Shown here in pieces: positions 2,122-60,314 of a stretch of DNA of 64,000 nt. The DNA is from Chiloscyllium plagiosum (taxonomy: Eukaryota). The stretch is from contig NC_057719.1 of NCBI RefSeq assembly GCF_004010195.1, positions 23,183,686-23,247,685 of the forward strand. The letters run 5' to 3'. Position 1 is the stretch's first letter. Each line of letters begins with the position of its first letter. The notes under the pieces are model-generated. The model was not told where the DNA came from. It did not search any database and saw only the letters and a list, made by a program, of their open reading frames with translations. The position numbers were made by a program, and so were the translations under genes.

Positions 2122-2560
2122 AGAGGTGATGCCTAGTGATAATGACAATGAACTAGGGAATCCAAAATCGCAGCCTAAAGTTCTGGGGACAATGGTTTGA
2201 ATCCTGCCATGGTAAGCAGTGAAATTTGAATTCACTTAAAGTCTAGAATTAAATAGCTGGACCTAATAGTGACCATCTAGTCACTGTCAATTGTTGAAGC
2301 AAATTTAGTTCCCAAATGTCTTTTAGGGGAGGAAATCTGCCACTCTGTTCTGAGGAAGGGTCACTGGACCTGAAATGTTAACTTTGATTCTCTCACAGAT
2401 GCTGCCAGACCTTTTGAACCTTTCCAGCAACTTCTGTTTTTGAATCTGCCACCCTTACCTGGTTTGGCCTACATATCAAGATGCACATCAATATGGCTGA
2501 ATCTTAACTGCAATAAACACTGGTCTGGTCAGCAATATTTACATCCCATGATTTTTTTTT
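2122..2560 (+). mobile_element. tRNA-derived SINE family 2, interrupted by a PLE end
   Basis: A/B-box-like head (tagtgataat...ggtttgaatcc); body shared with 21316, 35325, 40715 and 63005. Confidence 0.75.
2344..2442 (+). mobile_element. PLE 3'-end insertion (family C) carrying a hammerhead motif
   Basis: gtt CTGAGGA a gggtc actg gacct GAAATGTT aac; TSD AATCTGCCAC at 2334-2343 and 2443-2452. Confidence 0.8.
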
Positions 2561-2924
2561 AAATTGTGCTTTGACTACAATAAGTGGCTTCCTTGCTTTA
2601 CAAGAAAGCTGGGCCCAGTATGATACTGAGTCCATTAAAACTGAAAACCTGTGAGACTATTTTCTGACTGACCTCTTTATTTATTTTCTTTTCTGGCAGT
2701 GAATCTTCCAAGCAGCTTTAAGTTACCATTATCCCATTAGTCAAGCAGCAGCTCACCCCTATGTAAAGGTCGTTGATGCTCTATTCAAGCACTGAGAGGT
2801 TCAAAATTATCTCAGTGGAGTTTACTAAGCAAGCAGAGCTAGTAATTCAATTCTACAAATTTGTGCAAGGAGCAATTGATGAAACACATATGTCATTCAG
2901 AGTCCCATTTATTAATAGCAGGGA

Positions 2925-3410
2925 GATCATTATGGTGTGGTAAAGTACTAGTCTAATGCTTGACTACCATTCTGTAGGCATGCATTCAAATAATTACATG
3001 ACAGTTTATGAGTTCAAACTTGGTTTTAAAAATCCTGACCATCTTATCACTCAACATTTCAGATTCCCCCATCACCATTCTTGGGAATGTCCTGTGCTAT
3101 TGAGATGTGGATGTCACTGGCAAGGCAAGTAAGTTTTACCTAGACACCCTGGGAGAAAGCCTTCTTTTCAAACTGCTTTTGTCCTTCATAACATTTTAAA
3201 ACAACCAAGTGTCTTCATTTACAAAGCTGGCCTCGTGGCGAGCGTGTAATCACTGCTGCCTATTGTAAAAACTAATTTTTCACTAATCCATCCTCCCCTG
3301 TTATGGTTTACATGTGAATCCAGACTTCTAGCAAGGTGATTGGTTCTTATCTGGACTCTGGACAATTTGGGATGCGCAATAAATGCCAACATCTTGTGAA
3401 CATTTTTTTT
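2925..3410 (+). mobile_element. Degraded, interrupted SINE family 2
   Basis: Head remnant at ~2930-3030; body/tail (acatgtgaatccagac...gggatgcgcaataaatgcc) at 3250-3400. Confidence 0.55.
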
Positions 3411-4554
3411 AAAATTTCAGAGCATGCTTGGTGTGAATATAGTGGATTTTACAATAATCAAATATTATGATTATATTTACTCATACCAGCTTAATGTATC
3501 AGATTTTATTAAACTGGTTTCAAATTCTCCATCTGCTATGTTGGGATTTGAATTAAAATTCATTAAATTATTTGTCCAGCTCCCTGAATTGCTATTTCAA
3601 TAAAATAGCTACTACCTTGCTGAGCCTCTATATTATATAAATGTTTGCTACGTGGGAAACTGTTATGACACTTTGATCCTCTAACAGCAGCTCAAAGCTG
3701 TGCAGCAGGCTGGTTGATTGATGATCAAGATATTCCCTGCAGTCAAGGCTAATATTTCCAGCATAGATAGGAGAAGAAATATAATGAGACCCATGAGATA
3801 ACAAAAAAAACACAATAAAACACCTTAATGATAATCTGAAGTCTTGTTTACGTGACTTCAAAATCTCGTGGCGTCCAGTGAGAATGCCAGAATCATTGGA
3901 GCTTGTTCCTTAATGCTGAGGTGAAAAAAGGTTTTTTAGTTTCTGAAGATGAAGAGCCTAGTGATGAACTAGGGGCTGGTCTTTCACCTCTATTAAACAG
4001 TGTCCTTGAAACCAGAAATGATAATTAAAAGATGCATGAACACAGACCCAGAGAAATGAGGTGTTGCCTTATTACTGATAACTTTTTAAAAATTGCAGGT
4101 AAATGGGAAAATAAAGAAGAATTCTATGCTCAAAATGCAGGTTTGGCCAAAATCTATCAGACTTGTTAAGATCTGGGATCACCCAAGAACCTCCACTTTG
4201 CCTAAGTAAACAAAACCTCACTTTTTCCCATTATACATAAGAAAACATCATAGAGAATGTACATTGAATTTTGATTGCAACTAAAAATTGTGCAAAAAAT
4301 TGAAAAGATACATATCAAGAGACTGTCTAAAACAATTTTGTCAATTTTGTCAGAAATCACCCCCTCTGAAGTCAGTCTTGAGCCTTTCCCTAGAAAATAG
4401 ACTGATCACTGTATACAGCTGGCCAAAATAGGAAGAAAATGTAAAACAATTGAAACAAATAAAATAATAAAACAAGAGTGCTAAAAGTATATCGTTATGA
4501 AATTATAACGTTATGAAATAAAATATTTTTATAACTCTGCAAATATGAAAGATG

Positions 4555-4708
4555 GATCAGTGGTGCTGGAAGAGCACAGCAGTTCAGGCAGCATCGAGGA
4601 GCTTCAGCATTTTGCTGAAGCTCCTTGGATGCTGCCTGAACTGCTGTGCTCTTCCAGCACCACTGATCCAGAATCTGGTTTCCAGCATCTGCAGTCATTG
4701 TTTTTACT
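4555..4708 (+). mobile_element. Hairpin mini-PLE (family A)
   Basis: Near-perfect inverted arms centred at ~4610, tail on the right only, 14-bp TSD AAATATGAAAGATG at 4541-4554 and 4709-4722. Confidence 0.9.
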
Positions 4709-4804
4709 AAATATGAAAGATGTTCAATTCTAATACATCTCAATGTCAGCAAATGACAAATTGTCTGTGGACATGTAAAAGAATCAGGAAAAAATGTCAG
4801 GGCC

Positions 4805-4940
4805 ACTTATCTCTTCCACCCTGGATGCTCCCTGCCTTCAGTCCTGATGAAGGGCTTTTGCCCGAAACGTCGATTTTGCTGCTCCTTGGATGCTGCCTGA
4901 CTGGCTGTGCTTTTCCAGCACCACTCTAATCTAGACTCTC
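4805..4940 (+). mobile_element. Neptune-type PLE 3' end (family A)
   Basis: Same sequence as the 3' end of the 23605-24240 PLE fragment. Confidence 0.85.
4840..4875 (+). ncRNA. Minimal type I hammerhead ribozyme motif
   Basis: agtc CTGATGA a gggc tttt gccc GAA ACGT C gatt: intact core, stem II, palindromic stem III, stem I agtc/gatt; predicted cleavage after C4871. Confidence 0.8.
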
Positions 4941-5950
4941 ATTTATCCTGTACTCCCAGTCATGGGAAATATGCATGTTGTGAATCTAAATAATGCTAAA
5001 TAATGCAATCAATGAAATGAGTGACTATTTCAGGAAGAATTCCTTTGCACTCTTTCTTTAATTTCTTAAGTCAATAGGCAAGTTTAATCTACAAGCTGAT
5101 ATATGTGGTTTGTGAAAAATTAAGCACTGGTATAACTTCCAATCCTGGTCTTGTGTTGAATTTGGGTTAAACTTACTCCTCATATTCCTGAGCCCCATGT
5201 AGTTTTCTGGCTTGACAACATTTTTAAAAAATCTTTCACGACAGCTCTCTCTAAATTAATCTTAATAGATCTTTGAAATATTTCTGGCATTTTGAAAGCA
5301 CAGAGTTTATTCTCGAAAAAAAATGTCAGAAGGCTTTGAGGGCAGGTTCAATTTTTAACAGAAGCAAACTTTTGTCAAATCTGGAAATCTAAAGTAAAAA
5401 CAGAAAATATTGGAAATATGCAGCAGGTCAACCTTGAACTGAAAGGTGAGTCCATGGTCTGAATTTTTCCTACTTGGAGACGGGGGCTGAGAAAAGAGTG
5501 CGAGCTATGTCAAAATTGTTCTCTCGGGCTTTGTTGAGCTGCAATTAGAATCAGTTCCTGCTTCATGGCAGCAGACAACTAATTAAGATGGTTAAGGCAC
5601 CAATTGGGGCAATTTTACAATTTTTAGCCAATGCAGAGGTTCTTGGGCCATGTGGAAAATCAATGGAGATGGTTTAATTGCAGCAGGGCAGAGGGGTCTC
5701 TCAGCTGAAGGCCCATGCTCTAGTAGTCAATCTCTGCAAGCAACTGAGTCATCAGACAGTTTCTCTGGAGTGTTTTCCCGTGCCCTCTGTGGAGCATACC
5801 TGTTTTGGCTATCGTCATGTTTTTCTTTCAGGCCACCCCTATGAGGGTATTTCTAGGTTGAGGAGTCCCCATGGTCCCAGAGTTAGTTCAGCAGCAACAA
5901 CTTGTCCCAGTACAGCTGGCAACTCTCTGATTGGGCCAGCAGCATCAGAG

Positions 5951-6091
5951 TTTAGATCAGAATGATGCTGGAAAAGCACAGCAGGTCAGGCAGCATCCTG
6001 CTCCTCGGATGCTGCCTGACCTGCTGTGCTTTTCCAGCACCACTCTGATCTAAACTCTGGTTTCCAGCATCTGCAATCCTCACTTTTGCCT
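5951..6091 (+). mobile_element. Hairpin mini-PLE (family A)
   Basis: Inverted arms centred at ~6002; 13-bp TSD AGCAGCATCAGAG at 5938-5950 and 6092-6104. Confidence 0.9.
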
Positions 6092-6227
6092 AGCAGCATC
6101 AGAGCTTACCCACTGTCCTTAACAAGCAACTAATTAGAAGGGCACCTAATTTGGGGAAAGTTGGTGCCAATTGGCATGCAGCCAGTAAATGCAGGATCAG
6201 CACCTCCATTTAGTCCCCACATCACAG

Positions 6228-7822: not shown

Positions 7823-7824
7823 GT

Positions 7825-9159: not shown

Positions 9160-9300
9160 CTGGATTCGAGTGGTGCTGCAAGAGCACAGCAGTTCAGGCA
9201 GCATCCGAGGATGCTGCCTGAACTGCTGTGTTCTTCCAGCACCACTCGAATCAAGAATCTGGTTTCCAGCAACTGCAGTCATTGTTTTTACCTAGTTGAT
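9160..9300 (+). mobile_element. Hairpin mini-PLE (family A)
   Basis: Inverted arms centred at ~9207; 14-bp TSD CTTAACCTTGTATT at 9146-9159 and 9301-9314. Confidence 0.9.
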
Positions 9301-9569
9301 CTTAACCTTGTATTGCAAGGGTAAAGGTTATGATTAAGAGGGTGCAAAACAGAAGGGCCAGAAATCACAGACCATTTGCGACCAAGGATGCAGGAAATAG
9401 AAGCCTGAAGTCTTTGAGTCAGAGTTTTGGGAGCTTGAGAAGAGGTTAAAAAGCACAGCCAATGAAGAACAATTTCTGTTCCTTTTTTCCCAGTGCCACA
9501 CAGTAGCAAGTATAGAAATAACAGGATAAACTAGATTTATATGTTCCAACTGGGATTATATCTCAGTAT

Positions 9570-9696
9570 TCCTGAAGAAGGGCTAATGCCCGAAACGTCG
9601 ATTCTCCTGTTCCCTAGATGCTGCCTGACCTGCTGCGCTTTTCCAGCAACACATTTCCATCTCTGATCTCCAGCATCTGCAGACCTCACTTTCTCC
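9570..9696 (+). mobile_element. Mini-PLE starting at the hammerhead core
   Basis: CTGAAGA a gggc taat gccc GAAACGTC (9572-9599); 14-bp TSD TTATATCTCAGTAT at 9556-9569 and 9697-9710. Confidence 0.9.
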
Positions 9697-9779
9697 TTAT
9701 ATCTCAGTATGACATACTAGCGAGAAATGGAAGATGGTGAGGTTAATGGGAGGTTTGAAGCATAATGGAAGAGTGAAGC

Positions 9780-9995: not shown

Positions 9996-10957
9996 GACAA
10001 AATAGAAATTGAATGACAGGAGACGTTCAATGAAGGAAGTGTGAGTTGGGAGTAGATATATTCTTATGAGAGATAAAGAAAAGTCTAGACCTCCTTGAAT
10101 GATGAAAGATGATAGAGATTAAAATTAAACAAAAAAAGTATGATAAAAGTAGCACTCACTATACAGTAGAAAATCATGCTGAGCACATAGACAGAGCTAT
10201 AAAAGTAGAGGTGTAGTTCTCTCTGGCCAGGTTATTCAAAAGTCTACCTGTCTGAAGGGTCAGTGAATATCATTCAATCATTCTATGATTTTCCATATAT
10301 CAAATTGCTTTTTGGCCTTTTTGTTCCGAGTTCCTTTTGTGTGTTTAGCTTGATGGCCTTTCACAAATTCCATTTGCTTTTCCATCCTTATTAGTCTGAA
10401 AAAAACATCAAAATGTGAGTTAATAATACAATTTGAAGTACCTTTAAAGTTTATGTGCTCAATAAGCAATTACAAACAAAGGCTTTGACACTGAGATTAT
10501 GGTGCTTACAATCTGTGTGAGATTCATTTTAATGAATTAAACGTTTTGGAAACATTAGTGAAGTGTACATCAATAAATACTTCATACAAGAAAGTTGTGT
10601 CACAGTAAAAAGGCACAGTATTACAGGGAATTGCTGTAAACTCAATTACAGTAATAAACCACTGCATTTGTACTCTTGTCGAAACCTTTGTTTTCAACTT
10701 GTTGCAGTATCACTTTGTTGAGAATTGCCACTAGTAGCAAACTGGGAACAAGCATTTTGTACAGAACTTCTGATGCTACTTCACTCCAGTGCAATAAACT
10801 AATTGGAATACACACAAGAACATGTATCCTGTATGGAGTATCTGGAAACACTTCACCATGGTTCAAAGTTTGGGACACGATTTGTAGCTCGGGTGCTCGT
10901 TGTTGTGGTTCTGTTCACCGAGCTGGGAATTTGTGTTGCAGACGTTTCGTCCCCTGT

Positions 10958-12476
10958 CTAGGTGACATCCTCGGTGCTTGGGACCCTCCTGTGAACCACT
11001 TCTGTGATCTTTCCTCCACCATTTGTAGTGGTTTGAATCTGCCGCTTCCGGTTGTTAGTTCCAGCTGTCCGTTGTAGTGACCGGTATATTGAGTCCAGGT
11101 CAATGTGCTTATTGATTGAATCTGTGGATGAGTGCCATGCCTCTAGGAATTCCCTGGCTGTTCTCTGTTTGGCTTGTCCTATAATAGTAGTGTTGTCCCA
11201 GTCGAATTCCTGTTGCTTGTCATCTGTGTGTGTGGCTACTAAGGATAGCTGGTTGTGTCGTTTCGTGGCTAGTTGGTGTTCATGGATGCGGATCGTTAGC
11301 TGTCTTCCTGTTGGTCCTATGTAGTGTTTTGTGCAGTCCTTGCATGGGATTTTGTACACTACATTGGTTTTGCTCATGTTGGGTATCGGGTCCTTCGTTC
11401 TGGTGAGTTGTTGTCTGAGAGTGGCTGTTGGTTTGTGTGCTGTTATGAGTCCTAGTGGTCGCTGTAGTCTGGCTTTCAGTTCGGAAATGCTCCTGATGTA
11501 TGGTAGTGTGGCTAGTCCTTTGGGTTGTGGCATGTCCTCGTTCCATTGTCTTTCCCTTAGGCATCTGTTGATGAAATTGCGCGGGTATCCGTTTTTGGCG
11601 AATACATTGAATAGGTGTTCTTCTTCCTCTTTTTGCAGTTCTGGTGTACTGCAGTGTGTTGTGGCCCTTTTGAATAGTGTCTTGATGCAACTTCTTTTGT
11701 GTGTGTTGGGGTGGTTGCTTTCGTAGTTCAGGACTTGGTCTGTCTGTGTGGCTTTCCTGTATACCTTTGTGGTGAATTCTCCATTTAGGTGTTCTCTGCA
11801 CCATCACGTCTAGAAATGGGAGTTGGTTGTCCTTTTCTTCCTCTCTAGTGAATCGGATTCCTGTGAGTGTGGCGTTGATGATCCGGTGTGTGTTCTCTGT
11901 TTCAGTGTTTTTAATGATTACAAAGGTGTCATCCACATATCTGACCCAGAGTTTGGGTTGAATTTGCGGTAAGACTGTTTGTTCTAATTTTTGCATTACC
12001 ACTTCTGCTATGAGTCCAGAGATGGGTGAGCCCATGGGTGTGCCATTGATTTGTTCATATATTTGGTTGTTGAATGTGAAGTGTGTTGTGAGGCACAGGT
12101 CCAGTAGTTTGAGTATGCAGTCTTTGTTGATAGGTTCCTGTTGTCTGTTCTGTATGTCCAGCAGGTTGGCTATTGTTTCTCTGGCTAGGGTTTTGTCGAT
12201 AGAGGTGAACAGTGCTGTTACATCGAATGAGACCATGGTTTCTTCCTTGTCTGGGTGTATATTTCTGATGATGTCCAAGAATTCCTGTGTTTACTGTATA
12301 GAATGTCTGGATCTGCTGATCAGGTGTTTCAATTTCTGCTGTAGTTCTTTAGCCAGTTTGTGTGATGGTGTCCCTGGTAGTGATACTATGGGTCTGAGTG
12401 GGATGTCTGGTTTGTGCACTTTAGGTAGTCCATAGAATTGGGGGTGTTGTTGCTTTCAGGTTTCATTCTTTGTAAC
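10958..12476 (-). pseudogene. PLE reverse transcriptase + GIY-YIG endonuclease ORF, 5'-truncated and frameshifted near 11785
   Basis: MVSFDVTALFTSI, QINGTPMGSPIS, WVRYVDDTF and LPFLDV; then VVYKIPCKDCTKHYIG.TGR...RIHEH and REFLEAWHS. Confidence 0.95.
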
Positions 12477-13104
12477 ATACCCGCGCAATTTCATCAACAG
12501 ATGCCTAAGGGAAAGACAACGGAACGAGGACATGCCGCAACCCAAAGGACTAGCCACACTACCATACATCAAGAGCATTTCCGAACTGACAGCCAGACTA
12601 CTGCGACCATTAGGACTCATAACAGCACACAAACCAACAGCCACTCTCGGGCAACAACTCACCAGGACGAAGGACCCGATACCCAGCATGAGCAAAACCA
12701 ACGTAGTGTACAAAATCCCATGCAACGACTGCACAAAACACTACATAGGACAAACAGGAAGACAGCTAACGATCCGCATCCATGAACACCAACTAGCCAC
12801 GAAACGACACGACCAGCGATCCTTAGTAGCCACACACACAGATGACAAGCAACATGAATTCGACTGGGACAACACTACTATTATAGGACAAGCCAAACAG
12901 AGAACAGCCAGGGAATTCTAGAGGCATGGCACTCATCCACAGATTCAATCAATAAGCACATTGACCTGGACCCAATATACCGGCCACTGCAACGGACAGC
13001 TGGAACTAACAACCGGAAGCAGCAGATTCAAACCATTACAAATGGTGGAGGAAAGATCACAGAAGTGGATCACAGGAGGGTCCCAAGCACCGAGGATGTC
13101 ACCT
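12477..13104 (+). pseudogene. Inverted duplicate of the GIY-YIG endonuclease region
   Basis: VVYKIPCNDCTKHYIGQTGRQLTIRIHEH; a 1-bp deletion at ~12918 truncates it at AREF*. Confidence 0.93.
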
Positions 13105-13126
13105 AGACAGGGGACGAAACGTCTGC
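13087..13126 (+). ncRNA. Variant minimal hammerhead (mirror copy at 10938-10977, -)
   Basis: gca CCGAGGA t gtc a cct agac agg g gac GAA ACGT C tgc; stem I gca/tgc; the core has C in place of U4. Confidence 0.65.
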
Positions 13127-14027
13127 AACACAAATTCCCAGCTCGGTGAACAGAACCACAACAACTTCACCATGGTAACAAGACATGAGCTGGAGCACCA
13201 TTATGAAAAGGAAAGTGAGTAGCATTGGTGGGAGCATGTATTGAGGGAAATCAAAATCTGGACTAGCATTTCAGGAAAAGCAGAACAGCGACTATCAGTA
13301 TTAACTGAAAAAATTTGCAGAATGGGCTGCAGTTGTGAATGTTATAGACACAATAAGTTCATACTAGGATGCAACTTTCAGCACTTATTTCCAATGGCAT
13401 TTCCACACAATAGTAAGTCTAAATACTAAAGATATTGAGGGTAAACGGTATTCTCATTGTCAGAGAGGAATCACTTCAAGACAATAATTGTATTTCATCA
13501 ATTGAAGGTCTGATCTACTTTTTTTTGTGGATCTTTCATGATTTCTGGTGATATTCCTTTGCTACTGCTGATCCAAAAAAATGCTCTAAATGTTACAATC
13601 GTTAACAAGAATGAGAATACTTTTATGATCAAGTTAGGAATTGGTACCTCTTCTATTTAAAGAGATAAACTTGAAATACCAATTGCTTAGTAAAAGAATA
13701 AAGCCACAAAATTCCACAATTTTAAATGAACAGATGAAATTTAACTATACAAGAAATAAAAAGCAGGGGTCATGATTTATCTGATGTTCTAACATCTAGA
13801 ATTAATAGGCAAAATATGTTAAACACATAACAGACTGCATATTAAATGGCAGACAGAACCAAGATAGGTCCCACAAATTTCTTAGCAACTCACGCAGACA
13901 TGAATGAAGACTTTAATTCACAATTTGTTTCCAGAACTTCCTTCCGAAGGACAAGAACAGTCAATCTCTTTTGAAGATAGCTCTGTTTCCTGCATCAGCA
14001 ACATCAACTTAGACAGATCCAACCACC

Positions 14028-22916: not shown

Positions 22917-23256
22917 TTTGGAGATGCCGGTGTTGGACGGGGGTGTACCAAGTTAAAAATCAATACCAGGTTATAGTCCAACAGGTTTAATTGGAAGCAC
23001 ACTAACTTTCGGAGTGTCGTTCCTTCATCAGGTGATAGTGGAGGACACAATTGTAAGGCACAGAATGAAAGACTCACAGACAATCAAGGTATTTTTCAAT
23101 GTATAATTTCAGTTACATCACACTGTAAATTCTTGCTATAAATTCTGTGCCTTACAATTGTGTCCTCCACAATCACCTGATGAAGGAGTGGTGCTCCGAA
23201 AGCTAATGTGCTTCCAATTAAACCTGTTGGACTATAACCTGGTGTTGTGATTTTTA
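22917..23256 (-). mobile_element. Hairpin mini-PLE (family B) with two opposed hammerheads
   Basis: Arms ~22950-23066 and ~23143-23258; cac CTGATGA a ggagt ggt gctcc GAA AGCT A at 23174-23205; 12-bp TSD ACTCTTCTTTGA at 22905-22916 and 23257-23268. Confidence 0.9.
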
Positions 23257-23604
23257 ACTCTTCTTTGACTTGGTGAATGCTACATTGGACACATTACTGA
23301 AAACAACCAATGCTGGAGATCACAGCAAGTCAGACAGCATTCAGAAAGAGAGAGGAAGCTAACATTTCAAGTCTAGATGATGCTTCATCAGAGTTGAAGT
23401 GAAGTGTGGAGGGGATAGCATTTATGCTGCAGTTTGGAGGAAGTGGAGTAGTGGGTGAAGGGTACAGGTGGAGAAAAGGTATTGACAGTTCAGATTAAGT
23501 GAGAATGGTAGGACAATGGTGTGTCTCCTGCCACTTGAAAGGACAGACTGGGGTGGGGGAGGAGAGAGAGAGGAAATGATAACAAGCTAAAAGAAAGGAA
23601 AGGA

Positions 23605-24240
23605 ATGCGCCCCCCCTCCAACCGTAACAAGGACAGAACGCCCCTGGTGCTCACCTTCCACCCTACCAACCTTCACATAAACCAAATCATCCGCCGACAT
23701 TTCCGCCACCTCCAAACAGACCCACTACCAGGGGTATATTTCCCTCCCCACCCCTTTCTGCCTTCCGCAAAGACTGTTCCCTCCATAACTACTGGTCAGG
23801 TCCACGCCCCCCAACAACCCACCCTCCCCTGGCACTTTCCCCTGCCACCACAGGAATTGCAAAACCTGCGCCCAAACCTCCTCCCTCACCTTCATATAAG
23901 GCCCTAAAGGAGCCTTCCACATCCATCAAAGTTTTACCTGCACATCCACCAATATAATTTATTGTATCCATTGCTCCCGATGCGGTCTCCTCTACATTGT
24001 ATCCATTGCTCCCTCACCACCAGACGCGTGGAGGAAGAACGCCACATCTTCGGCCTTGGAACACTTCAACCCCATGGCATCAATGTGGACTTCAACACCC
24101 CCTCCTCTCACTTATCTCTCCACCCTTCAGGCTCTCTGCCTGTATTCCTGATGAAGGACCTTTGCCCGAAACGTCGATTTTATTGCTCCTTGGATGCTGC
24201 CTGAACTGCTGTGCTCTTCCAGCACCACTAATCCAGAATC
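23605..24240 (+). mobile_element. Neptune-type PLE fragment (family A), RT thumb/linker/GIY-YIG remnant + 3' end
   Basis: PLVLTFHPTNLHINQIIRRHFRHLQTDP, Cys linker, IIYCI.CSRCGLLYI and IFGLGTLQPHGINVDF; hammerhead core at 24148. Confidence 0.88.
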
Positions 24241-24854: not shown

Positions 24855-25305
24855 TAACATCACACAGCACCAGGCTATAGTGCAACAGGTTTATTTGGAA
24901 GTATTAGCTTTCAGAGTGCTGCTCCTTCGTCAGGTAACTAGTGGGGCAAGATCATAAGACACTGAATTTAGAGAAAAAGATCACAGTGTCATGCAATTAA
25001 AATGATATATATCATTTCTTACAGATAGATTATTAATCAAGCAATCAAATTAGTCCCGAAATTCCAAAAGCATTTGTCACCATTCTGAATTTTTCTCCAC
25101 AACATTTCCATATATGTCGTTTTGATTGTCTGATACTGTGATCATTTGCTATAAAATCTGTGTCTTATGAACCTGCCCCACTAACCACCTGATGAAGGAG
25201 CCACACTCTGAAAGCTAGTACTTCCAAATAAACCTGTAGGACTATAACCCGTGTTGTGTGATTTTTAACTTTGTCCACTCCAACCCAATACTGGCATCTT
25301 CACGT
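24855..25305 (+). mobile_element. Hairpin mini-PLE (family B)
   Basis: ~130-bp inverted arms; cac CTGATGA aggag..ctct GAAAGCTA at 25186-25217; tail on the right only. Confidence 0.85.
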
Positions 25306-36103: not shown

Positions 36104-36340
36104 CTAGATAAAAACAAGGACTGCAGATGCTGGAAACCAGAGTCTAGATTAGAGTGGTGCTGGAAAAGCACAGCAGGTCAGGCAGCATCCAAGGAGCAGG
36201 AAAATCAACATTTCGGGCAAAAGCCCTTCATCAGGAATAGAGGCAAGGTGCCTGCAGAGTGGAGAGATTATCAAAACATCGATTTTCCTGCTCCTCGGAT
36301 GCTGCCTGACCTGCTGTGCTTTTCCAGCACCACTCTAATC
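36104..36340 (-). mobile_element. Hairpin mini-PLE (family A) with a hammerhead
   Basis: Reverse complement CTGATGAagggcttttgcccGAAA at 36210-36235; 16-bp TSD CATT(C/T)CCAAAAATACA at 36088-36103 and 36341-36356. Confidence 0.9.
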
Positions 36341-40713: not shown

Positions 40714-41005
40714 TTGTCCAGAGGACAGTTAATGGTTAATCACATTGCTGTGGGTCTGGAGTTAATTGTAGGCCAGACCAGGTAAGGATGGCAGTTTCCT
40801 TCCCTAAAGGACATTAGCAAACCAGATGGAGCTTTCCTGATAATTGACAATGGATGCATGGTCATCATTAGATCGTAATTCCAGGTTTTTATTGAATTTA
40901 AATTTCACCATCTACCAAAACGGTATTCATTTCTTGGTCCCCAGAACATTACCTGGATCTCTGGATTAATAGTCTTGAAAAAAATAACAGTAGGCCATTG
41001 TCTTC
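40714..41005 (-). mobile_element. SINE family 2
   Basis: Reverse complement of the 21316-21570 sequence. Confidence 0.82.
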
Positions 41006-41540
41006 TTTAACTGATTAAACTGCTCCACTAGTCAGGTATTAAGTCCATTAAAATTGAAAATCATAGTCGGTTGATGTATATTTGAAACATTTTTGGACTA
41101 AATAGAGAAATGTGTGTTTAAGCTCCAACTAACTGCCAAACCAAAGGGATCTCTAAGATACAATTCCTTTTTATTTCTGTTGGCCTGAGAGCAGAATGAA
41201 TGCTTCTCAGGCTTCTCAAATTTCGCCTGGGTCCTTGCTTCAGATTATTCCCACTCCAGACAACATGGGGCCCACCACAAGGCTATATTACACTGCCCAA
41301 TGCCCTTCGCATCCAATACACACTCATATCCTCATTTACCATCTTTCATTCCAGAAACTAGATGATCTAATGTGAGTCCAGTGCAGTTGCTTTCTCTGAG
41401 GGCACAGCAAGCCTTCTTTGCGCTAATGAAAAAAACTTAGTAATAGACAAACTGAATCTATTTAAAATAGAATTTCTACAAAGTATAAAAAACAGAACTC
41501 GCAATGAAATACTCTCTTGATATAAGCAGAAATGTTTCTA

Positions 41541-42441
41541 TTGGTTAGCACTGCTGCCTTGCAGCACCAGGGACCCAGGTTCAATTCCAGCCTTGGGCAA
41601 TTGTCTGTGTGGAGTATGCACATTCTCCCCGTGTCTGCGTGGGTTTCCTCTGGGTGCTCTGGTTTCCTCCCACAATCCAAAGATATGCAGGTCAGGTAAA
41701 TTGGCCATACTAAATTGCCCGTAGTATTCGGTGCATTGGTCAGAGGGAAATGAGTCTGGCTGGGTTACACTTTAATGGGCTGCACAGTGGCATAGTAGTT
41801 AGTGCTGCTGCCTCACAGCGCCAGAGACCCGGGTTCAATTCCCATCTCAGGCAACTGTCTGTGTGGAGTTTGTACATTCTCCCCATGTCTGCGTGGGTTT
41901 CCTCCGGGTGCTCTGGTTTCCTCCCACAGTCCAAAAATGTGCAGGTTAGGTGAATTGGCCATGCTAAATTGCCCGTAGTGTTAGGTGAATGGGGAAATGT
42001 AGGGGAATGGGTCTGGGTGGATTGCTCTTCGAGGGTCAATGTGGACTTGTTGGGCCGAAAGGCCTGTTTCCACACTGTAAGTAATCTAATCTAAAAAACA
42101 CAATAAGTTGAGAACAGCCAGATAAATTACCACCAGTATGGTTGCTCAGTGTTTGGCACTGCTGCCTCACAGCACCAGGGACCTGGATTTGATTCCAGCT
42201 TGGGTGACTGTCTGTGTGGAGTTTGCACATTCTGCCCATGTCTGCATGGGTTTTCTCTGGATGCTCCGGTTTCCTCCCCCAGTCCAAAATGTGTTGGTGA
42301 GGTGGATTGGCCATAGGAAATGCAAGGTTTCAGGGATAGGATTGAGAGGTTGGTTTGTATGAGGTGCTCTTTGGTGGGTCAGTGCGGATTCAATAGGCTG
42401 AAAAGCCTGCTTCTACAATGTTGGGATTCTATGATTTCTAT
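41541..42441 (+). mobile_element. Cluster of three HE1-like SINEs (41541-41777, 41778-42092, 42135-42441)
   Basis: Three same-orientation repeats of the head and central domain. Confidence 0.92.
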
Positions 42442-44170: not shown

Positions 44171-44174
44171 TGAT

Positions 44175-47807: not shown

Positions 47808-48235
47808 TTAGAAGCATAGAAAATAGGTGCAGGAGTAGGCCATTTGTCCTTCAAGCCTACACCAGCATTCAATATGATCATGGCTGATCATGCAATCTCA
47901 GTATCCCATTCCCACCCTCTTTCCATATCCCTTGACCTCTTTAGCTGCAAGGGCCACATCCAGCTCTCTTTTGAATATGACAGAAGTGGGTACTGCAGAT
48001 GCTGGAGATTAGTGTCAAGATTAGAGTGGTGTTGGAAAAGCACAGCAGGACAGGCAGCATCCAAGGAGCAGAAAAAATGACATTCATCCTGATGCTGCCT
48101 GCCCTATTGTACTTTTCCAGCACCACTCTAATCTTGACTCCCTCTTGAATAGCTTTCCACAGATTTACAATTCTTTGAGTGAAGAAATTCTGCCTCATCT
48201 CAGTCCTGAATGGCTTACCTCTTTATTCTTAGACT
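47808..48235 (-). mobile_element. CR1 3' end containing a hairpin mini-PLE (47978-48137)
   Basis: NFFTQRIVNLW; hairpin flanked by imperfect CTC.CT.TTGAATA repeats at 47964-47977 and 48138-48151. Confidence 0.85.
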
Positions 48236-48583: not shown

Positions 48584-48789
48584 GTTAACCATTAATCTGT
48601 TAATGCCTGTTAAGGTACAATTACTTTTTTTATCAAAGGGTTGAAAAACAAGCCTTGTTATTCATTGTGTTGAATGTGTATTAGCTTTGTGCTGGGAGAT
48701 GAGAAGTAAGGACTTGAGGCAGAATATACATTTACTTGGTGCCTTTCACATTTTTAAGACCTCTTACAGCAGTTCAGTTATAAGTGAGA

Positions 48790-49662
48790 TAATCATCCTC
48801 CATCATTTACACCACCTACAAACAGACCCCACCACAAGAGATATATTTCCCTCCCCACCCCTTTCTGCATTCCACAGAGACCATTTCCTCTGCAACTCCC
48901 CCATACTAAGTCCATGCCCCACACCAACCCACCCTCCACTCCTGGCACCTTCCCTTGCCACCACAAGAGGTATAAAACCTGTGCCCAACCACCCCCCCCA
49001 CCCACCTCCGTCCAAGGCCCTAAAGGATCCTTCCACGTCTGGCAGAGATTTTCTTGCACCTCCACGCACGTCACCTACTGTATCCGTTGCTCCCGATGTG
49101 GTCTCCTTTATATTGAGGAGATAGGGTGGCAACTTGTGGAACGTTTCTGAGAACATCTCTGGGACATATGCACTAAACAATCCCACTGCCCTATGGCCGA
49201 ACACTTCAGCTCTCCCTCCCACTCCGCCAAGTACATGCAGGTCCTGGGCCTCCTAGATTCTAGCTACCCAACGCCTGGAGGAAGAACATCTCATCTTCCA
49301 CCTTGGCACCCTCCAATCACAAGGAATCAATGTTGATTTCAGCAGTTTTTTCATCTCCTCTCACCCCACCTTATCACAGATCCAACCCCCCAACCTGGCA
49401 CCGCCCTCTTGATCTGTTCTACCTGTCCATCTTCCATTCAACCTATCCACTTCCCCCACCCCCGACCTTTTACCATCACTTCCCACGTTCATCTACCTAT
49501 CACATTCCCAGCTACATTCCCCCCAGTCTCAACCCCTCCCATTTACGTCTCAGCGCCCTTGGGCCTCCCCTACACTCCTGATGAAGAGCGTATGAAGAGC
49601 GGCTCTCCTGCTCCTCGGATGCTGCCTGACCAGTTGTACCAATCCAGTAAAACACTTTTTGA
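48790..49662 (+). mobile_element. Neptune-type PLE 3' fragment
   Basis: LQTDPTTRDIFPSPPLSAF, PGTFPC...KTCA and FSCTSTHVTYCIRCSRCGLLYIEE...ERF (Cys linker + GIY-YIG); family A 3' end. Confidence 0.9.
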
Positions 49663-49677
49663 CAACTACCTGAATAA

Positions 49678-50863: not shown

Positions 50864-51176
50864 TTGATTAAATTCCCTACAGTATGGAAACAGACCATTT
50901 GGCCAAACAAGTTCACATGACCCTCCGAAGAGTAACCCACCCAGACCCATACCCTATATTTTTCTATGACTAATGCACCTAACACTATGGGCAATTTAGC
51001 ATGGCCAATTCACCTGACCTGCACATTTTGGACTGTGGGAGGAAACCAGAGAACCTGGAGGAAACCCGCGCAGACATGGGGAGAATGTGCAAACTCCACA
51101 CAGGAGCCCGAGGCAGGAATCGAACCCGGATCCTTGGCACTATGAGGCAGCAGTGCTAACCACTGAGCCACCTTGC
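50864..51176 (-). mobile_element. HE1-like V-SINE
   Basis: Full head, central domain and tail. Confidence 0.92.
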
Positions 51177-51181
51177 TGACC

Positions 51182-52681: not shown

Positions 52682-53667
52682 AACAAACACATGATTTTTT
52701 GGAGAAACCCAGCAGGTCTGGCAGCATCTGTGGAGAGAAACTATAGTCAACATTTCAAAAGTCCAGTGACCCTTCATCAGAACCTGTAGGTCTTGGTTTT
52801 ATGTTTTGGGTCACAGCCATTTCTGTCGAATTAGCTGACCTATTCTCTTGAAATCATGCTTCTTAGCAAAGCTGATAAAGTATTTGAAAAACCTTCACAA
52901 GTGGTCGATTGCCTGCATTAAGTAACTATGGTAACATGAAATCTCAAAATCGCGCAAGGAATGGAGTCACATTGGGTGTTGTAGATGGGTTTGATACTGT
53001 CAGGTTTGATGAGCTTGGGGTTGGTGATGGATCAGAAGAGTTTTGGATTGTGGGAGGGTGGCAAGTGAGGGGGAGGGTGCTTGGTCAGGAGGGTGTCAGT
53101 AGTTGGAGGGGTATCATTAAGAGTTGATTTGAATGGCTACCGAGTCGTAAAAGCAGGTTTTAAAGCCTCTATTTTTTTGTTGGGTAACTTTTAGGCTTAA
53201 GTGAATCAGAACACTCCAAAATTTCTGATTCAAACAATGAGTTGAGGATTGTTTTGGAGGAATCCAAATTGCTGGGTAATCAAATCTTATGGAATCGGCT
53301 GAATTAGGATTTCTGCTTGGGTCTTCACACACTGTTCCAATCTATGCTGCCGTAAACTTTCTGAGCTATCACCTTTCCAACAGTCACAGTTGCACTTCAG
53401 TATTTTTTGAAAACATTTTTGCGTTTTTTGTTGTACAGTTTCCTTATATAGCTCTGTGAATGGGAAGCAATATTTTATTTTTTTCTGGATGCAAATATTC
53501 TGGATATAAACCAAGCCACTGCTCTCTCCATAATGTTTATGAAATTAAGTCAATTCCAGAGGAAATCACAAACGCATTAATCCCATAGAATGGCCATTGA
53601 TTACTATAAAAGTATTATCACTGATCTTATAAAAATGATGTAATGTTCAGCAAGTTAAATGCAGACC

Positions 53668-54147
53668 ATGCTGTAGGAAAGATGTTGTTAAGCATGAAAG
53701 TGTTCAGAAAATATTTACAAGGAATTTGCCAAGTTGCAGGTTGGAGCTATTTTCCCTGGACCATCAGAGGTTGAAGGGTGACTTCATAGAAATTTATAAA
53801 GTCATGAGGGGCATTGATAGGGTGGATAGTCAATGTCTTTTCCCAAGGGTAAGGGAGTCCAAAGCTAGAGGGCATGGGTTTAAAGTGAGAGAGGAAAAAT
53901 TTAAAAAGGACCCAAGGGGCAATTATTCCATGCAGAGGGTGATGCATGTTTGGAATGAGCTGCCAGAGAAAGTGATGAAGGCTGGTACAATTATAGCATT
54001 TAAAAGACATGGGTATATGAATAAGAAGGGTTTAGAGAAATACGGACCAAATGCTGGCAAAGGGAAAAGATTAATATGGGATATCTGTTGGCATGGACAA
54101 GTGGGCCAAAGGGGCCTGTTTCCATGCTGTACATCTCTATAACTCTA
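53668..54147 (+). mobile_element. CR1 (HER1-like) 3' fragment
   Basis: RLKGDFIEIYK and QRVMHVWNELP; tail. Confidence 0.92.
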
Positions 54148-54650: not shown

Positions 54651-54659
54651 CACCAAGTC

Positions 54660-55460: not shown

Positions 55461-56102
55461 TTTATCATAGAGGCAGTAGACCCTCTCATAAGCTCGAGAG
55501 GTGGGACTGAGACTGCTCCTGCTAGCTCTGGGAGGGGTGGAGGGGGGTGGTTCCACGACCACAGTTGACATATGCCAGAAAAATTCTTACCTGAACGTAT
55601 GGCTGCCACATCACCCCATCCCAGCGGGGTATCCCACCTCCAAGAGTTGCCACCAATTAGATGGCTAGCAGCTCTTCAGTCTCAACAATGCCACTGGAAA
55701 CAGTGGCCACTCCTAATACTGCCATCAATCCTTGACAGGGAGCAGAGGCGAATTGCCAGACAAGCAGTTAAGTGGGCCTTCTTCTCAGATGTAGCCTGAC
55801 CTACTGAGCATTTTTTTGCAGTTTCTATTTTACTTACCATACATACCCAAGTAATGGTCACCTTTTTTGACAATTATTTAAGGTTAAAGTTATGGAGTCA
55901 ACTATTACTACTACTTTTGAGGCGCTGAAATTCATGCCTGTCAAAATTCGTACCGTATCATTTGCATAAGTCCAACTGATCTCTGAATGAATAAAGATAA
56001 AAAAACGCAATAAGATTATGGGAATTCTCAAAACCCGAAGCGGAAGTGAACAACCGGCAGACTGACTCATGAATGTTGATCTGTTGTCTGCAAAAAACCA
56101 AG

Positions 56103-56328
56103 CTGAAAATGTGTTGCTGGAAAAGCGCAGCAGGTCAGGCAGCATCCAGGGAACAGGAGAATCGACGTTTCGGGCATAAGCCCTTCTTCAGGAATGAGGC
56201 ATTCCTGAAGAAGGGCTTATGCCCGAAACGTCGATTTTCCTGTTCCCTGGATGCTGCCTGACCTGCTGCGCTTTTCCAGCAACACATTTTCACCTCTGAT
56301 CTCCAGCATCTGCAGACCTCACTTTCTC
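56103..56328 (+). mobile_element. Young hairpin mini-PLE with back-to-back intact hammerhead cores
   Basis: ~92-bp arms with about one mismatch around a 3-nt loop (56197-56199); CTGAAGA at 56205-56211, GAAACGTC at 56225-56232; TSD ctgcaaaaaa(a)cYaag. Confidence 0.93.
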
Positions 56329-57871: not shown

Positions 57872-58556
57872 AGGAAACCTCGATTATCCGAACGAGATGG
57901 ACGGGCATTATTCCGTTTGGATAATTGATTATTCCGTTAATTGATTGAATGCCTCTCCTCTGGGGCTCGGAGTTTTCTATTAAGTCTGCACCCTGTTCAG
58001 GAGACCCCAACCACCCCCCAACCCCATCCAGCAGCACCGCCCCCTGTGCACCCCCTTTCCGCGACCATTCCGCCCACCTCTCTGGGACACCTGGACTAGA
58101 CACCAACAACAAGACTGCTGCTGCTGCCTTTTGTTGGGGGGGGTGGGGGTGGGGGTGAGTCTCCAAATACTGTGCGCGCGCATACACACACACAGACACA
58201 CACACAGACAACGTTTTACTGCAACTATTTGACAAGTTCCACCTTTGCCCTGTAAAGGACAATGTTGGAGAAATTATCTGGGGAAGCGGGGTTTAGAGTA
58301 CATGCCTGTGCAAAACTCCAGGGAAAGTGTAGGGAGAGAGAGAGGGCAGGCGGTCAGTTATTTGGAGATGGTGCCTGGGGTCCCATCGATGTCCAGGACT
58401 GTTCTTGGCAGTACTTCAGTAAGCCGAGTTCATTTTTAATCACTGTAAATAGAAGACACGATCAGTGTTGGAAACATGTCTTTGATGTAATGTTTCCATC
58501 AGGACCTCAAGATTTCCTTCGGATAATCTAATATTCGGATAATTGATATTCTCCTG
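57872..58556. mobile_element. Non-autonomous Tc1/mariner (pogo/Tigger-like) element
   Basis: TIRs aacctcgattatccgaa / ttcggataattgatattctcctg followed by TA; appears inserted in a short tRNA-like SINE (57790-57872 + 58560-58655, -). Confidence 0.7.
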
Positions 58557-58959
58557 TATAGCAAACTCAGCTAGTGTGGGAATGGAACCCAAAGTGTTGG
58601 TATCACTTCATATTCAGAAACCAGCAGTCCAGCCAACTGAACTATCTCAACCCCAGACTCAGAGGTATACATGGTAAAGACACAAGTATGCTGTCTGACT
58701 TAAGGCCATGAGTACAGTAAATAGAATGCAGAATAAGGTTTTTCTTTCTCCCTGCAACCTTGGATACATCTCTGTTTGGATTTCTATACTTAGCATGCTC
58801 AGTTCTAATGCAAAGCAACAATAAAGCAGCAGCTGCTATGTGGAATGTTGATACAGTTGACCTTGTAACATGAGATCCAGACTATTTTATGAAAATAATT
58901 GTGGGGCTCGTTTATATAGGATCCTCCATGTTTCTGTTGGCCACAGGAAGCTTTAGCTA

Positions 58960-59213
58960 TGGCACGGTGGCTCAGTGATCAGCACTGTTGCCAGGGACCT
59001 GGGTTCGATTCCAGTCTCAGATGACTGGCTGTGTGGAGTTTGCACATTCGCCCTGTGTCTGCATGGTTTTCCTCTCACACTCCAAAGATGTGCAGGTTAT
59101 GTGGATTCGCCATGGGATATGCAAGATTACAGGGGTAGGATGGCTCTGGGTGGGAAGCTGTTCAGAGGGTCAGTGTGGCCGAATGGCCTGCTTCCAAACT
59201 GTAGGGATTCTAT
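58960..59213 (+). mobile_element. HE1-like V-SINE
   Basis: tggcacggtggctcagtg...gggttcgattcc. Confidence 0.88.
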
Positions 59214-59414
59214 AGTCAATGAACAGAAGTGAGAAAGCAAGAAACCGCTAGCAATGGGGACACTGTGAAGGGAGGGCTCTGAGAAAGTCAAATAATTAAG
59301 TAATTCTCGGCAAAGCCAAATGTTTCCTTATGAAAGGAATGCCTTTACTCACACCAAGTCCACAGCAGCTTCCTTGTTCAGCTACAGTAAATATTTCAGT
59401 CAGGCCCCACCATC

Positions 59415-59638
59415 AAGGAGCAAATTACTGCAGATGCTGGAATCTGTCCTGAAATCAAAAATGCAGGAGATCACAGCAGGTCAGACAGCATCCATTGAGA
59501 GAGAGCAAACTAACATTTGGAGTCCACCTGACTCTTCATCAGCAGCTGTGATGAAGAATCATCTAGACTTGAAACGTTGGCTTGCTTTCTCTTCATAGAT
59601 GCTGCCTGACCTGTTGCGATCTCCAGCACTTTTTGTTT
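59415..59638 (-). mobile_element. Hairpin mini-PLE (family D) with opposed hammerhead remnants
   Basis: TSD TCAGGCCCCA(C/T)CATC at 59400-59414 and 59639-59653; tgatgaagaatcatctagacttGAAACGTT. Confidence 0.85.
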
Positions 59639-60314
59639 TCAGGCCCCATCATCTGTCAATTAATGAGAGGACCCCACTGGCTTCAGGCAGACACTTTTAC
59701 AATTATTCAGACAAGCAGGTTGAGAGATCAGACCTGTGCGTAAGCTATCTCAGCAATTTTAGCTGCCTGCAAACTCTCTACCCTTCCATTGTCAGGAAAA
59801 AAAGACACAAGGATTTCTCAGGATTCTCTTCCTTTGCTTTTCAGCAATCTTCATACTTGCTTTCCCAATAATCATCATGGAGTTATGTCCTGAACTTTAA
59901 TCCTGAGATATATTGTGTGCAGAAGTTTGGTGTTATAAGTTAAGCAAATCTGGATGAATGAGTTTCTTATGAGTCTGGCTTGTATTAATTGCAGGGGAAA
60001 GGTAATTGCAGGGGAGTCCTATTATTCATGTTTCTGTGTCATTCCAACCCATTCCAGCAGCCTGTTAGGGAGAAAGAAATCTCTTTTGAGGGTAGCCTGT
60101 TTCACACGTATGTAGGTTATGAGAGCTGGTAAATGTAATGAGGCCATGAGAGAGATCAAATTGGGAGAGGGGTTCCGCTAATTACTTGGTCATGGCCTAA
60201 TCATAATCATGAGAAGTGGTGAGGAGGCTTCCAGTTATTGGAAAGTGGAGGTGGGAGGGCAGACGGAATGGATGGTGGTCACTTGAGGCATCTACAGGTG
60301 GGGGTTTACTGAAG

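Follow-up and report, generated by a model that had tools for sequence, protein, structure and literature searches.

The window analysed here is a stretch of 64,000 nt from the shark Chiloscyllium plagiosum (GCF_004010195.1, NC_057719.1, forward strand, 23,183,686–23,247,685). It contains 15 core-intact minimal hammerhead motifs, counted from the sequence, in which CYGANGA...GAAANNUH is unbroken. Given as the position of C3, they lie at 2350, 4844, 9572, 13090, 23177, 24148, 25189 and 56205 on the + strand, and at 10974, 23031, 23391, 24933, 36234, 52780 and 56191 on the − strand. At least seven decayed motifs are also found (1876+, 14961−, 24499+, 49577+, 50526+, 59535− and 59548+). This bears out the claim of a sequence-only reading of this DNA that the 64 kb hold well over ten motifs, and the eleven sites cited there are all present. 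A loose structured scan yielded 19 matches versus 2.4 per dinucleotide shuffle, and a strict one (perfect core plus two 3-bp stems) 4 matches versus 0.05, with 20 shuffles each. The published min-HHR descriptor (CUGANGA, helix II of 3–7 bp, GAAANNUH, helix I of 3–7 bp) is passed only by the motifs at 2350+, 4844+, 23031− and 52780−, and failed by the other 11 of the 15. The hammerhead family appears in none of the 14 matches (E up to 5) of an Rfam search of the window, where no canonical type I hammerhead, with a stable helix III and a match to the Rfam model, was found.

All 14 representative motifs have an additional base inserted between positions 9 and 10.1; their first helix II pair (10.1–11.1) is G-C in nine, G-U in four and A-U in one. 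As stated by the earlier reading, helix III is replaced by a 4-nt palindrome, ACGT in families A, C, D and E and AGCT in B, which is CpG-decayed in many copies; its 4-bp self-duplex is worth −1.7 kcal/mol. Stem covariation between families is visible by comparing these hand-picked representatives, which stand for few independent lineages.

The motifs are of a kind already known, the minimal hammerheads that Penelope-like elements (PLEs) carry. Each one lies beyond the end of a PLE ORF and is followed by a 3′ end of two possible lengths, about 35 nt apart. Sequence comparison places them in three lineages, namely Neptune-type A (whose tail is common with C and D), Neptune-type B and Poseidon-type E. 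The "five distinct families" proposed previously thus reduce to three unrelated lineages, and the attribution of minimal type I motifs to PLE ends is sustained through an ORF link for A, B and E. A same-strand PLE ORF lies within 1.5 kb upstream of the motif in 23 of 24 E rows and in 11 of 53 A rows, nine of the latter ORFs ending 106–279 nt from the motif. The B parent ORF ends 550–650 nt upstream of the motif (three loci); its homologs in sharks have PF26215, a CX4CxxC linker and a GIY-YIG region, with a BLASTP match of 3e-10 to the A parent. For C and D, none of 13 rows has a convincing ORF of its own, the PLE link being provided by the tail common with A. Clades were assigned by motif comparison, Neptune being recognized by a CX2-5CxxC linker between RT and endonuclease. 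This linker is present in the A parent (23844 region of the window) and in the B parent homologs; it is absent in E, which is therefore placed with Penelope/Poseidon. Among 18 retrieved stretches, several of them interrupted by assembly gaps, none holds an intact pLTR–ORF–pLTR copy.

The window contains a 5′-truncated Poseidon-type PLE (10862..13163, −), with an RT at 11280–12290 (Pfam RVT_1, E 1.7e-10) and an HTH/GIY-YIG region at 10958–11803. The endonuclease domain was missed by the Pfam search of this element. The atlas look-alikes of the element (0.95–0.96) carry HTH_animal and GIY-YIG (19–27% of members), and the VYxIxC...YIG endonuclease motif is visible in the PLE sequences, so that the order typical of EN+ PLEs, RT then C-terminal GIY-YIG endonuclease, is found. 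Two further EN+ traits are an optional 30–40 nt tail and an inverted 5′-truncated copy at the 5′ end: the element is joined back-to-back to an inverted copy (12436–13163, +), with a 12–13 bp target duplication, a long tail on the − arm and a short one on the + arm. Its family E hammerhead (10938..10977, −, C3 10974) has U4 changed to C and the stop codon of the ORF in loop II. The mirror copy (13087..13126, +, C3 13090) has the same U4 change, and its TATA box reads TACAAA (13037–13042). The CCGAGGA core given earlier for the Poseidon type is real at both sites and limited to that insertion: 20 of 24 E rows read CTGA, and the four CCGA rows are this insertion entered twice.

Two Neptune-type remnants lie further downstream on the + strand. 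The 3′ remnant at 23566..24240 retains the CX4CxxC linker, a GIY-YIG region and a short tail, together with a CTTATCT box (24111–24117), a putative +1 A at 24144 and a family A hammerhead (C3 24148). Stem II of the latter is broken, which corrects its previous listing; loose RNA ends are seen at 24144 in raw RNA reads. The second remnant (48645..49660) carries a frameshift, and its family A hammerhead, near 49577, is destroyed. Further family A copies lie elsewhere in the window. The hammerhead at 4840..4875 (+, C3 4844) begins at a putative +1 A (4840), with a 4-bp helix I and a predicted cut after C4871. The short insertion at 9568..9696 (+, C3 9572) starts at its presumed +1 A within a 14-bp target duplication (9556–9569, 9697–9710), the last 2 nt of which overlap the element start. 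The hammerhead at 36203..36238 (−, C3 36234), with a decayed palindrome, belongs to a back-to-back unit with an 11-bp duplication. The back-to-back unit at 56098..56328 joins a short and a long arm (hammerheads 56160–56195, −, and 56201–56236, +) within a 10-bp duplication; its transcript is predicted to fold into a single hairpin, with zero hammerhead pairing. The agtc/gatt helix I formerly ascribed to family A holds at 4840, while the copies at 9572, 24148, 36234− and 56205 read attc/gatt, in which the third helix I pair is a U-U mismatch.

Family B is represented by two back-to-back units. The first comprises a left-arm hammerhead (23000..23034, −) with a 12-bp target duplication, a TATAAA (23137–23142) 32 nt ahead of the putative +1 A (23169) on the + strand, and a right-arm hammerhead (23174..23208, +, C3 23177) whose helix I is broken by a G to A change. 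The second has a left arm at 24902..24936 (−, C3 24933) and a right arm at 25150..25220 (+), with TATAAA at 25150–25155 and a hammerhead at 25186–25220 (C3 25189). Family C hammerheads occur at 2347..2382 (+, C3 2350, predicted cut after 2379) and at 52746..52783 (−, C3 52780), the latter missing from the earlier list. The family D hammerhead at 23358..23394 (−, C3 23391) has decayed stems, and both cores of the back-to-back D unit at 59472..59618 are mutated (59548+, where C3 is lost, and 59535−). The D stem as previously written is in neither of these window copies; one copy elsewhere (L035) has it.

The genome as a whole is very rich in such motifs, as had been suggested, since random-sample scans lie far above shuffles. 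The estimate above control is about 285,000 core-intact motifs, or one per ~12 kb; with the published descriptor the number is roughly 113,000. This descriptor gave 18 matches in 564,360 random bases versus 0–1 in 20 shuffles, a density of ~32 per Mb (95% range 19–50), and it is failed by the commonest A variant, with its U-U in helix I. Matches to the A and B tails number 172,810 and 72,639, respectively. The motif density looks higher than in the published counts compared here. Set against genome size, those of 2014 amount to ~6 per Mb in Xenopus tropicalis and 1.4 per Mb in the coelacanth. They correspond to ~9,000 and 4,000 min-HHR (Cervera and de la Pena 2014, PMC4209133), and 126,247 motifs, about 4.5 per Mb, are reported in axolotl (Cervera 2020, PMC7229834; Li et al. 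2026, bioRxiv 10.64898/2026.07.22.740005). The idea of an undescribed density stands in so far as these reported figures appear to be exceeded; the 2014 work already described this kind of motif, its diversification into several families and its thousands of solo copies in a genome.

The motifs themselves belong to a known class, ordinary apart from density, and the ends of the copies matter more. At the 3′ side, ends are bimodal in all three lineages, at about +95/+128 in A (n=133), +88/+122 in B (n=41) and +72/+110 in E (n=14). An inverted partner is found within 330 nt upstream of 48/134 A, 43/91 B and 4/34 E copies. Back-to-back A pairs combine a long and a short arm in 22 of 25 cases, long copies being 70/133 overall. 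Whole units are bordered by 10–14 bp target duplications, and short copies have duplications too. Among the neighbours within 1 kb of 58 randomly sampled motifs, six were back-to-back and five on the same strand, no same-strand pair having matching motif sequences. No hammerhead-bearing tandem array, as expected of non-LTR retrozymes, was found in the window.

At the 5′ side, a pile-up is observed at the front edge of the motif rather than at its cut site, which is a new observation. Ends at −10..+2 were found in 55/130 A and 30/90 B copies, a rate of ~7.5% and 4.7% per nt versus 0.8–1.0% on both sides; those at the cut site (+25..+31) are 2/130 in A, 1/90 in B and 2/34 in E. The pile-up falls on a single initiator-like A, which is the first base of helix I in family A and precedes that helix by 5 nt in family B. 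A TATA or TTTATCT/CTTATCT box lies 30–33 nt ahead of this A in 21 of 25 long A copies, these TATA-like words having been picked after inspection of the data, and a TATA-type box is present in 12 of 19 long B copies. In family C, a box lies 29 nt ahead in 2 of 10 rows, the two with common upstream sequence. Family E, with a box at −53 (21 TATAAA and one TACAAA of 22), shows no sharp pile-up (0/34 at −10..+2, 5/34 between −35 and −17).

The base preceding the start A is frequently a G. Among the purines at this position, 41% of which are expected to be G, hand counts gave 68 G:32 A in family A (first 100 of 18,079 genome matches) and 84 G:16 A in family B (first 100 of 1,938); in the retrieved copies the ratios were 7 G:1 A for family A and 5 G:0 A for family B. 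Restricting the count to host-flank rows, separated by eye from inverted-arm rows, left 30:18 and 27:12 (p 0.003 and 0.0005). Compared with the next base upstream, the host-flank excess is not significant (57:30 vs 20:20, p 0.12). A control junction gave 7 G:17 A, or 7:7 without rows ending GA (p 0.37 vs pooled). An extra G is reported to mark capping at full-length L1 junctions (PMC11702581). Microhomology at +1 is encountered as well, with 2 nt common to the target duplication at 9568.

Taken together, the motifs are probably best described as the hammerheads of three PLE lineages, most copies of the two largest families being short run-off cDNAs of the capped, uncleaved 5′ end. The pile-up A would be the capped transcription start, driven by the TATA(-like) box 30–33 nt upstream in the pseudo-LTR, and the element RNA would therefore begin with its own hammerhead. 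RT would prime at two internal tail sites, as it does in vitro for the anole element, and, on the 5′-most repeat or on any TATA-retaining copy, run off the capped end after 95–135 nt. In many cases it would place a C opposite the cap, read as the extra G on the top strand. Both nicked strands could be primed, one per tail site, generating the long plus short back-to-back pairs. The resulting 95–135 nt copies would be dead, promoterless without their TATA box. Because the templates would be uncleaved, cleavage would not be the step behind these insertions. The hammerhead would be kept by selection in active lineages. It is rather plausible that transcription of the two unrelated shark Neptune lineages opens with the hammerhead, from a capped start at helix I base 1 (A, C) or 5 nt before (B), that tens of thousands of insertions are such run-off cDNAs, and that head-to-head repeats are two of them on opposite strands from two tail sites. 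As for the hammerhead itself, our best guess is a slow switch, dependent on protein or dimerization, removing the cap and the first 31–37 nt from protein-bound RNA, or trimming of tandem read-through; decapping would act on RNA already bound by the element's protein.

According to the 2014 proposal, cleavage of dimers, perhaps with circularisation, makes the RNA to be reverse transcribed, and the genome would be full of working ribozymes. Core and stems are indeed kept across lineages with compensatory changes, helix III is self-complementary, Schistosoma min-HHR dimers are reported to cut weakly in vitro (PMC4209133), and a rolling-circle template need not end at the cut. However, only 5 of 254 ends over three families lie at the cut, matching same-strand neighbours are missing from the random sample and tandem arrays from the window, the commonest A variant fails the descriptor, and back-to-back transcripts give zero predicted hammerhead pairing; we regard this reading as unlikely. 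The very large ribozyme-bearing population put forward earlier is correct as a number of motifs, but a large population of working ribozymes is improbable, because most copies are decayed, solo or back-to-back with an antisense arm of their own, and the cut is not where insertions begin. Similarly unlikely is a pile-up due to RT stalling or to a joining preference (microhomology, or cutting of ATT by the endonuclease) immediately beyond the hammerhead, rather than to an RNA end. The anole endonuclease is reported to favour ATT (PMC11167929), with which A copies begin, and both the microhomology at 9568 and the imperfect G controls are in its favour; yet B piles up at another sequence (ACAA) and offset (−8), the TATA spacing fits in A and B, and the extra G is strongest in B.

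The very high number of tail matches could also evoke a self-propagating non-autonomous family, SINE-like or a monomeric retrozyme, with its own internal promoter, all the more so as the Drosophila Penelope promoter is described as internal (PMC2377424) and retrozymes derive from pLTRs. Short copies begin past the TATA box, their flanks are unique, the window has no tandem arrays, and ragged 5′ ends run on into long ORF-bearing copies, which makes this quite improbable. Motifs are found in polyA RNA on both strands, as host-domesticated regulatory ribozymes might be, but window copies CpG-decay like neutral DNA and no host exon was detected by Pfam in 99 non-repeat ORFs of at least 62 aa, a search that short exons would escape; domestication of some copies appears very improbable. 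As a point against the preferred reading, no read-start pile-up at +1, nor any at the cut, was seen in one informative polyA single-cell run, 98% of whose reads continue into host sequence; such data show cleavage products poorly.

The preferred reading, of a capped sense template, can be set against known systems. The min-HHR described in 2014 (PMC4209133) share the core, the extra base after A9, the G-C first helix II pair, the 4-nt palindrome for helix III, a short helix I, Poseidon and Neptune hosts, and several families per genome, mostly solo or in opposite-strand pairs; they differ in that no shark is reported there, supplement file 1 apart, and in that the commonest shark A variant falls outside their descriptor. 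PAc, the green anole Poseidon (Frangieh et al. 2024, PMC11167929), is reported to have two internal priming sites, which give the tail, both strands being extended from uncleaved RNA; hammerhead cleavage is not needed, and the hammerhead cuts only with protein. An ATG at the start of stem II is common with family E. The PAc data were obtained in vitro from uncapped templates, with no transcription start mapped in that report, whereas the shark evidence comes from the genome and suggests, for two Neptune lineages, that the hammerhead is where the capped RNA starts. Drosophila virilis Penelope (Schostak 2008, PMC2377424) and rotifer pLTRs (Arkhipova 2013, PMC3846280) similarly have a pseudo-LTR promoter starting shortly upstream of the hammerhead, and head-to-head palindromes; a putative TATA and initiator are described in a rotifer pLTR, whereas in the fly the promoter lacks a TATA box, is internal and comes with an intron. 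An antisense template is favoured for head-to-head repeats in the rotifer paper (PMC3846280), while in the shark the extra G and the long plus short arms speak for a sense template that is capped, with priming on both strands.

The role of the PLE hammerhead, the template strand and the origin of head-to-head repeats are stated as open in the literature. If true, the present reading would provide fossil evidence that a capped sense template is used in vivo and account for the record hammerhead density, the PLE hammerhead being a conditional self-decapping switch and not a template-making tool. The genome holds hundreds of thousands of insertion junctions, allowing base-precise predictions (start site, extra G, no cut-site ends, long plus short arms), and frog, lizard and fish genomes lend themselves to the same junction count. 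Non-LTR retrozymes (Cervera 2020, PMC7229834; Li et al. 2026) likewise carry type I hammerheads in short non-coding pLTR-related repeats, tandem ones being reported in one chondrichthyan (Li et al. 2026, bioRxiv 10.64898/2026.07.22.740005). These are head-to-tail arrays of mostly canonical hammerheads, whereas the units of the window are solo or back-to-back with target duplications.

All eleven hammerhead sites proposed in the sequence-only reading were found in the window, and the presence of such motifs is confirmed, since a structured scan gave 19 loose matches against 2.4 per shuffle and a strict scan 4 matches against 0.05 in shuffles. The core is intact in 15 motifs; seven or more others have decayed. 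Two sites do not hold as listed, stem II being broken at 24148 (family A) and C3, the core C that serves here as position 0, being missing at 59548; the other family A sites exist, but a U-U mismatch interrupts helix I at four of the five A sites. Only four motifs of the window passed the descriptor of Cervera and de la Pena, and no Rfam match to a hammerhead model was obtained there. A fuzzy motif census overlooked known motifs and was never relied on alone. The motifs are further representatives of the known minimal hammerhead kind of Penelope-like elements (PLEs), at unusually high density. Helix I pair 3 separates subfamilies of family A, namely U-A, G-C, G-U and U-U (L031:9036, L043:2934, 4840, 56205; L numbers denote other stretches of the same genome), the U-U variant being the most common A type in a random sample. 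At least two more families were also seen (14961 (-), L038:522, L041:317, L035:4344), one of them Poseidon-like with a stem II of 5-7 bp and another related to A with a short loop II.

The earlier interpretation is partly supported: very many motifs do exist in the genome, but its five families (A to E) reduce to three lineages because C and D share the tail of A; no separate ORF turned up for either of them. All three lineages have the two 3' ends, spaced by about 35 nt, that characterise PLE tails, and their clade names are based on the linker motif and not on a tree. Family E closes a Poseidon-type element at 10862-13163, with a reverse transcriptase (RT), an HTH/GIY-YIG region, an inverted truncated copy and a target duplication of 12-13 bp; GIY-YIG domains were undetected by Pfam. 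An ORF lies directly upstream in 23 of 24 family E rows, and its stop codon sits within hammerhead loop II (10938-10977 (-), 13087-13126 (+)), while stem II begins with an ATG in a different frame, as it does in an anole element. The CCGA core of family E is confined to this insertion. Both E arms have the same U4-to-C core change and TATA-to-TACA change, suggesting that the template already carried them.

A Neptune-type ORF precedes the family A motif within 106-279 nt in 9 of 53 rows (23566-24240 in the window), and a second one lies 550-650 nt before the family B motif; the 3' region that separates them is CA-rich, with a block of low complexity situated between ORF stop and TATA box (L016:1500-2350, L214:80-1000, L011). 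Direct BLASTP of the 54-aa end of the B ORF against the A parent gave no link; the two were tied via longer homologs, and the named relatives of the B ORF come from carpet sharks and a houndshark. The same ORF end occurs inside two annotated shark proteins (P0005 and P0010, a PPP1R12A-like and a GPCR-domain model), which is probably annotation read-through and possibly exonisation. No full-length tandem element was found in the fetched stretches. Assembly gaps often lie within or beside PLE inverted repeats (L045, L104, L107, L113, L114, L118, L211), so that the counts of long copies and of back-to-back copies are probably too low.

The interest of the finding lies mostly in the junctions of these copies. 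The tail alone served to gather copies, whose 5' ends were then placed on long non-inverted copies; 4 A rows and 1 B row close to gaps or edges were excluded, and a few C-type rows persist in the A set. The 5' ends of 55 of 130 family A copies and of 30 of 90 family B copies fall at -10 to +2, a rate of 7.5% (A) and 4.7% (B) per nt compared with 0.8-1.0% on either side. This supersedes a preliminary map (41/136 at -9 to +1) in which C, D and older families were mixed. Ends are not concentrated at the cut site (2/130 A, 1/90 B, 2/34 E), and the pile-up copies are bordered either by an inverted arm or by unrelated host sequence. Starts are most frequent at an A whose surroundings resemble the initiator consensus: it is the first helix I base in family A and lies 8 nt before C3 in family B. 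Most long B copies (12 of 19) have a TATA box 30-32 nt upstream of it, and most long A copies (21 of 25) a TTTATCT/CTTATCT box, words picked after inspection, at a distance of 30-33 nt; in both C rows with common upstream sequence, a box lies at 29 nt. Family E has a TATA box at -53, yet no sharp 5' pile-up.

The base before the peak A was also considered. Where it is a purine, the first 100 genome matches of each family have G and A in ratios of 68:32 (family A) and 84:16 (family B), for an expected G share of 41%. When only the rows with host flanks, sorted by eye, are considered, the ratios are 30:18 for A (p 0.003) and 27:12 for B (p 0.0005). Two comparisons weigh against this G excess: the next base upstream gave 20 G:20 A (p 0.12 against the pooled 57:30), and a control junction at +32 gave 7 G:17 A, or 7:7 without ambiguous rows. 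At junctions of full-length L1 copies, an extra G is described as the sign of a cap (PMC11702581). Untemplated C added where the RT runs off would leave the same trace, and would also imply a real RNA end. In about 13 of 100 control-junction matches listed, the sequence from stem II onward to a point shortly beyond the cut is missing, and the ends are joined at a 2-nt repeat, a recurrent jump across the hammerhead hairpin.

Many copies are arranged as inverted pairs, with a partner just upstream in 48 of 134 cases for family A and in 43 of 91 for family B. Flanking duplications measure 10-14 bp, which indicates that each unit is one event; of the 13 units in the window, 7 (a solo copy included) show duplications of at least 10 bp. 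The two arms differ in length, one long and one short, in 22 of 25 A pairs, of which one is a spurious pairing. A transcript across such a unit folds as a single hairpin with zero hammerhead pairing. In some A units truncated within the tail the hammerhead is gone (4560-4680, 5950-6093, 9160-9295, 47990-48140); these account for the spurious Rfam miRNA matches of the window, which are hairpins of back-to-back units and not miRNAs.

Promoters have been described in the pseudo-LTRs of PLEs (Schostak 2008, PMC2377424; Arkhipova 2013, PMC3846280), and Frangieh et al. 2024 (PMC11167929) describe two internal RT starts with both strands extended, cleavage being unneeded and protein-assisted. Element transcripts would begin at the hammerhead, and RT primed in the 5'-most tail would reach the capped end and run off after 95-135 nt; priming on both strands would give the long and short pairs, and run-off products, devoid of a TATA box, would be dead. 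We consider this run-off origin from uncleaved RNA likely. An RT start 60-100 nt past the cut, combined with transcription beginning a few bases ahead of the core, would place a whole hammerhead in nearly every short insertion, which would explain the density without host benefit. Cutting would take off the cap and 31-37 nt. As to the role of the hammerhead, our guess is that the best fit is a conditional switch retiring protein-bound RNA, or the trimming of tandem read-through RNA. The openly available papers and preprint main texts searched contain no account of the start-site or cap signature, nor of a capped run-off origin. None of the listed sequencing runs that contain the stretch is recorded as RNA; two raw RNA runs were used, of which one gave 1,819 placed reads and the other none. 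In polyA RNA, the loose ends of 208 reads lie at 24144, the same boundary as the copy starts, and no pile-up of read starts or ends was seen anywhere.

The very large population of ribozyme motifs postulated from the window is borne out genome-wide, a loose core pattern (B excluded) giving 293,074 matches against 8,035 for its reversed control. Exact patterns gave 80,723 matches for A, 20,114 for B and 287 for the CpG-intact form of C, and tails with one mismatch allowed 172,810 (A), 72,639 (B) and 13,608 (E). In 60 stretches chosen by round coordinates (564,360 called bases), the published descriptor detected 18 motifs against 0-1 in shuffles; extrapolated from these stretches, this corresponds to about 32 per Mb and 113,000 per genome (95% range 67,000-179,000). 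Published counts are about 9,000 in Xenopus tropicalis and 4,000 in coelacanth (Cervera and de la Pena 2014, PMC4209133), more than 6,000 in a coral and, for the axolotl with its 28-Gb genome, 126,247 motifs of the canonical type (Cervera 2020, PMC7229834; Li et al. 2026, bioRxiv 10.64898/2026.07.22.740005). With approximate genome sizes, and not from a side-by-side comparison, the shark density is about 2-5 times the highest of these. No description of the density of PLE hammerheads in sharks was found in the openly available papers and preprint main texts searched.

Covariation of stems between families had also been proposed. Two-sided changes are indeed visible at helix I pairs 1-3 and helix II pairs 1-4 among 14 hand-picked representatives, pair 3 of helix I being G-C in 5, C-G in 4, U-A in 2, and A-U, G-U and U-U in one each, but the independent lineages are few. 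The pattern would fit selection in active lineages, which, again, are few, and copies within families show CpG decay. Pairs were read from anchors, and a MAFFT alignment of 10 motifs, in which family B was shifted by one column, was left out.

The window also contains LINE fragments that we take to be of CR1 type, including an ORF1-like piece (171-889, 28711-30821, 31639-32091, 53639-54142; RVT_1 match at 29319-29705), and a short, highly repeated family whose head resembles a tRNA (D6-D8, D10, D13, D17; 40397-42321, 27529-27699, 50983-51176 and others), presumably a shark SINE. No tRNA gene was found in the window, and no host exon by Pfam. Elsewhere in the genome, an open frame of 339 aa (L003:131-1148 (-)) resembles part of an LTR-element or retroviral pol, and a C2H2 zinc-finger array ORF lies beside a Neptune remnant at L111:4554-5445 (-).
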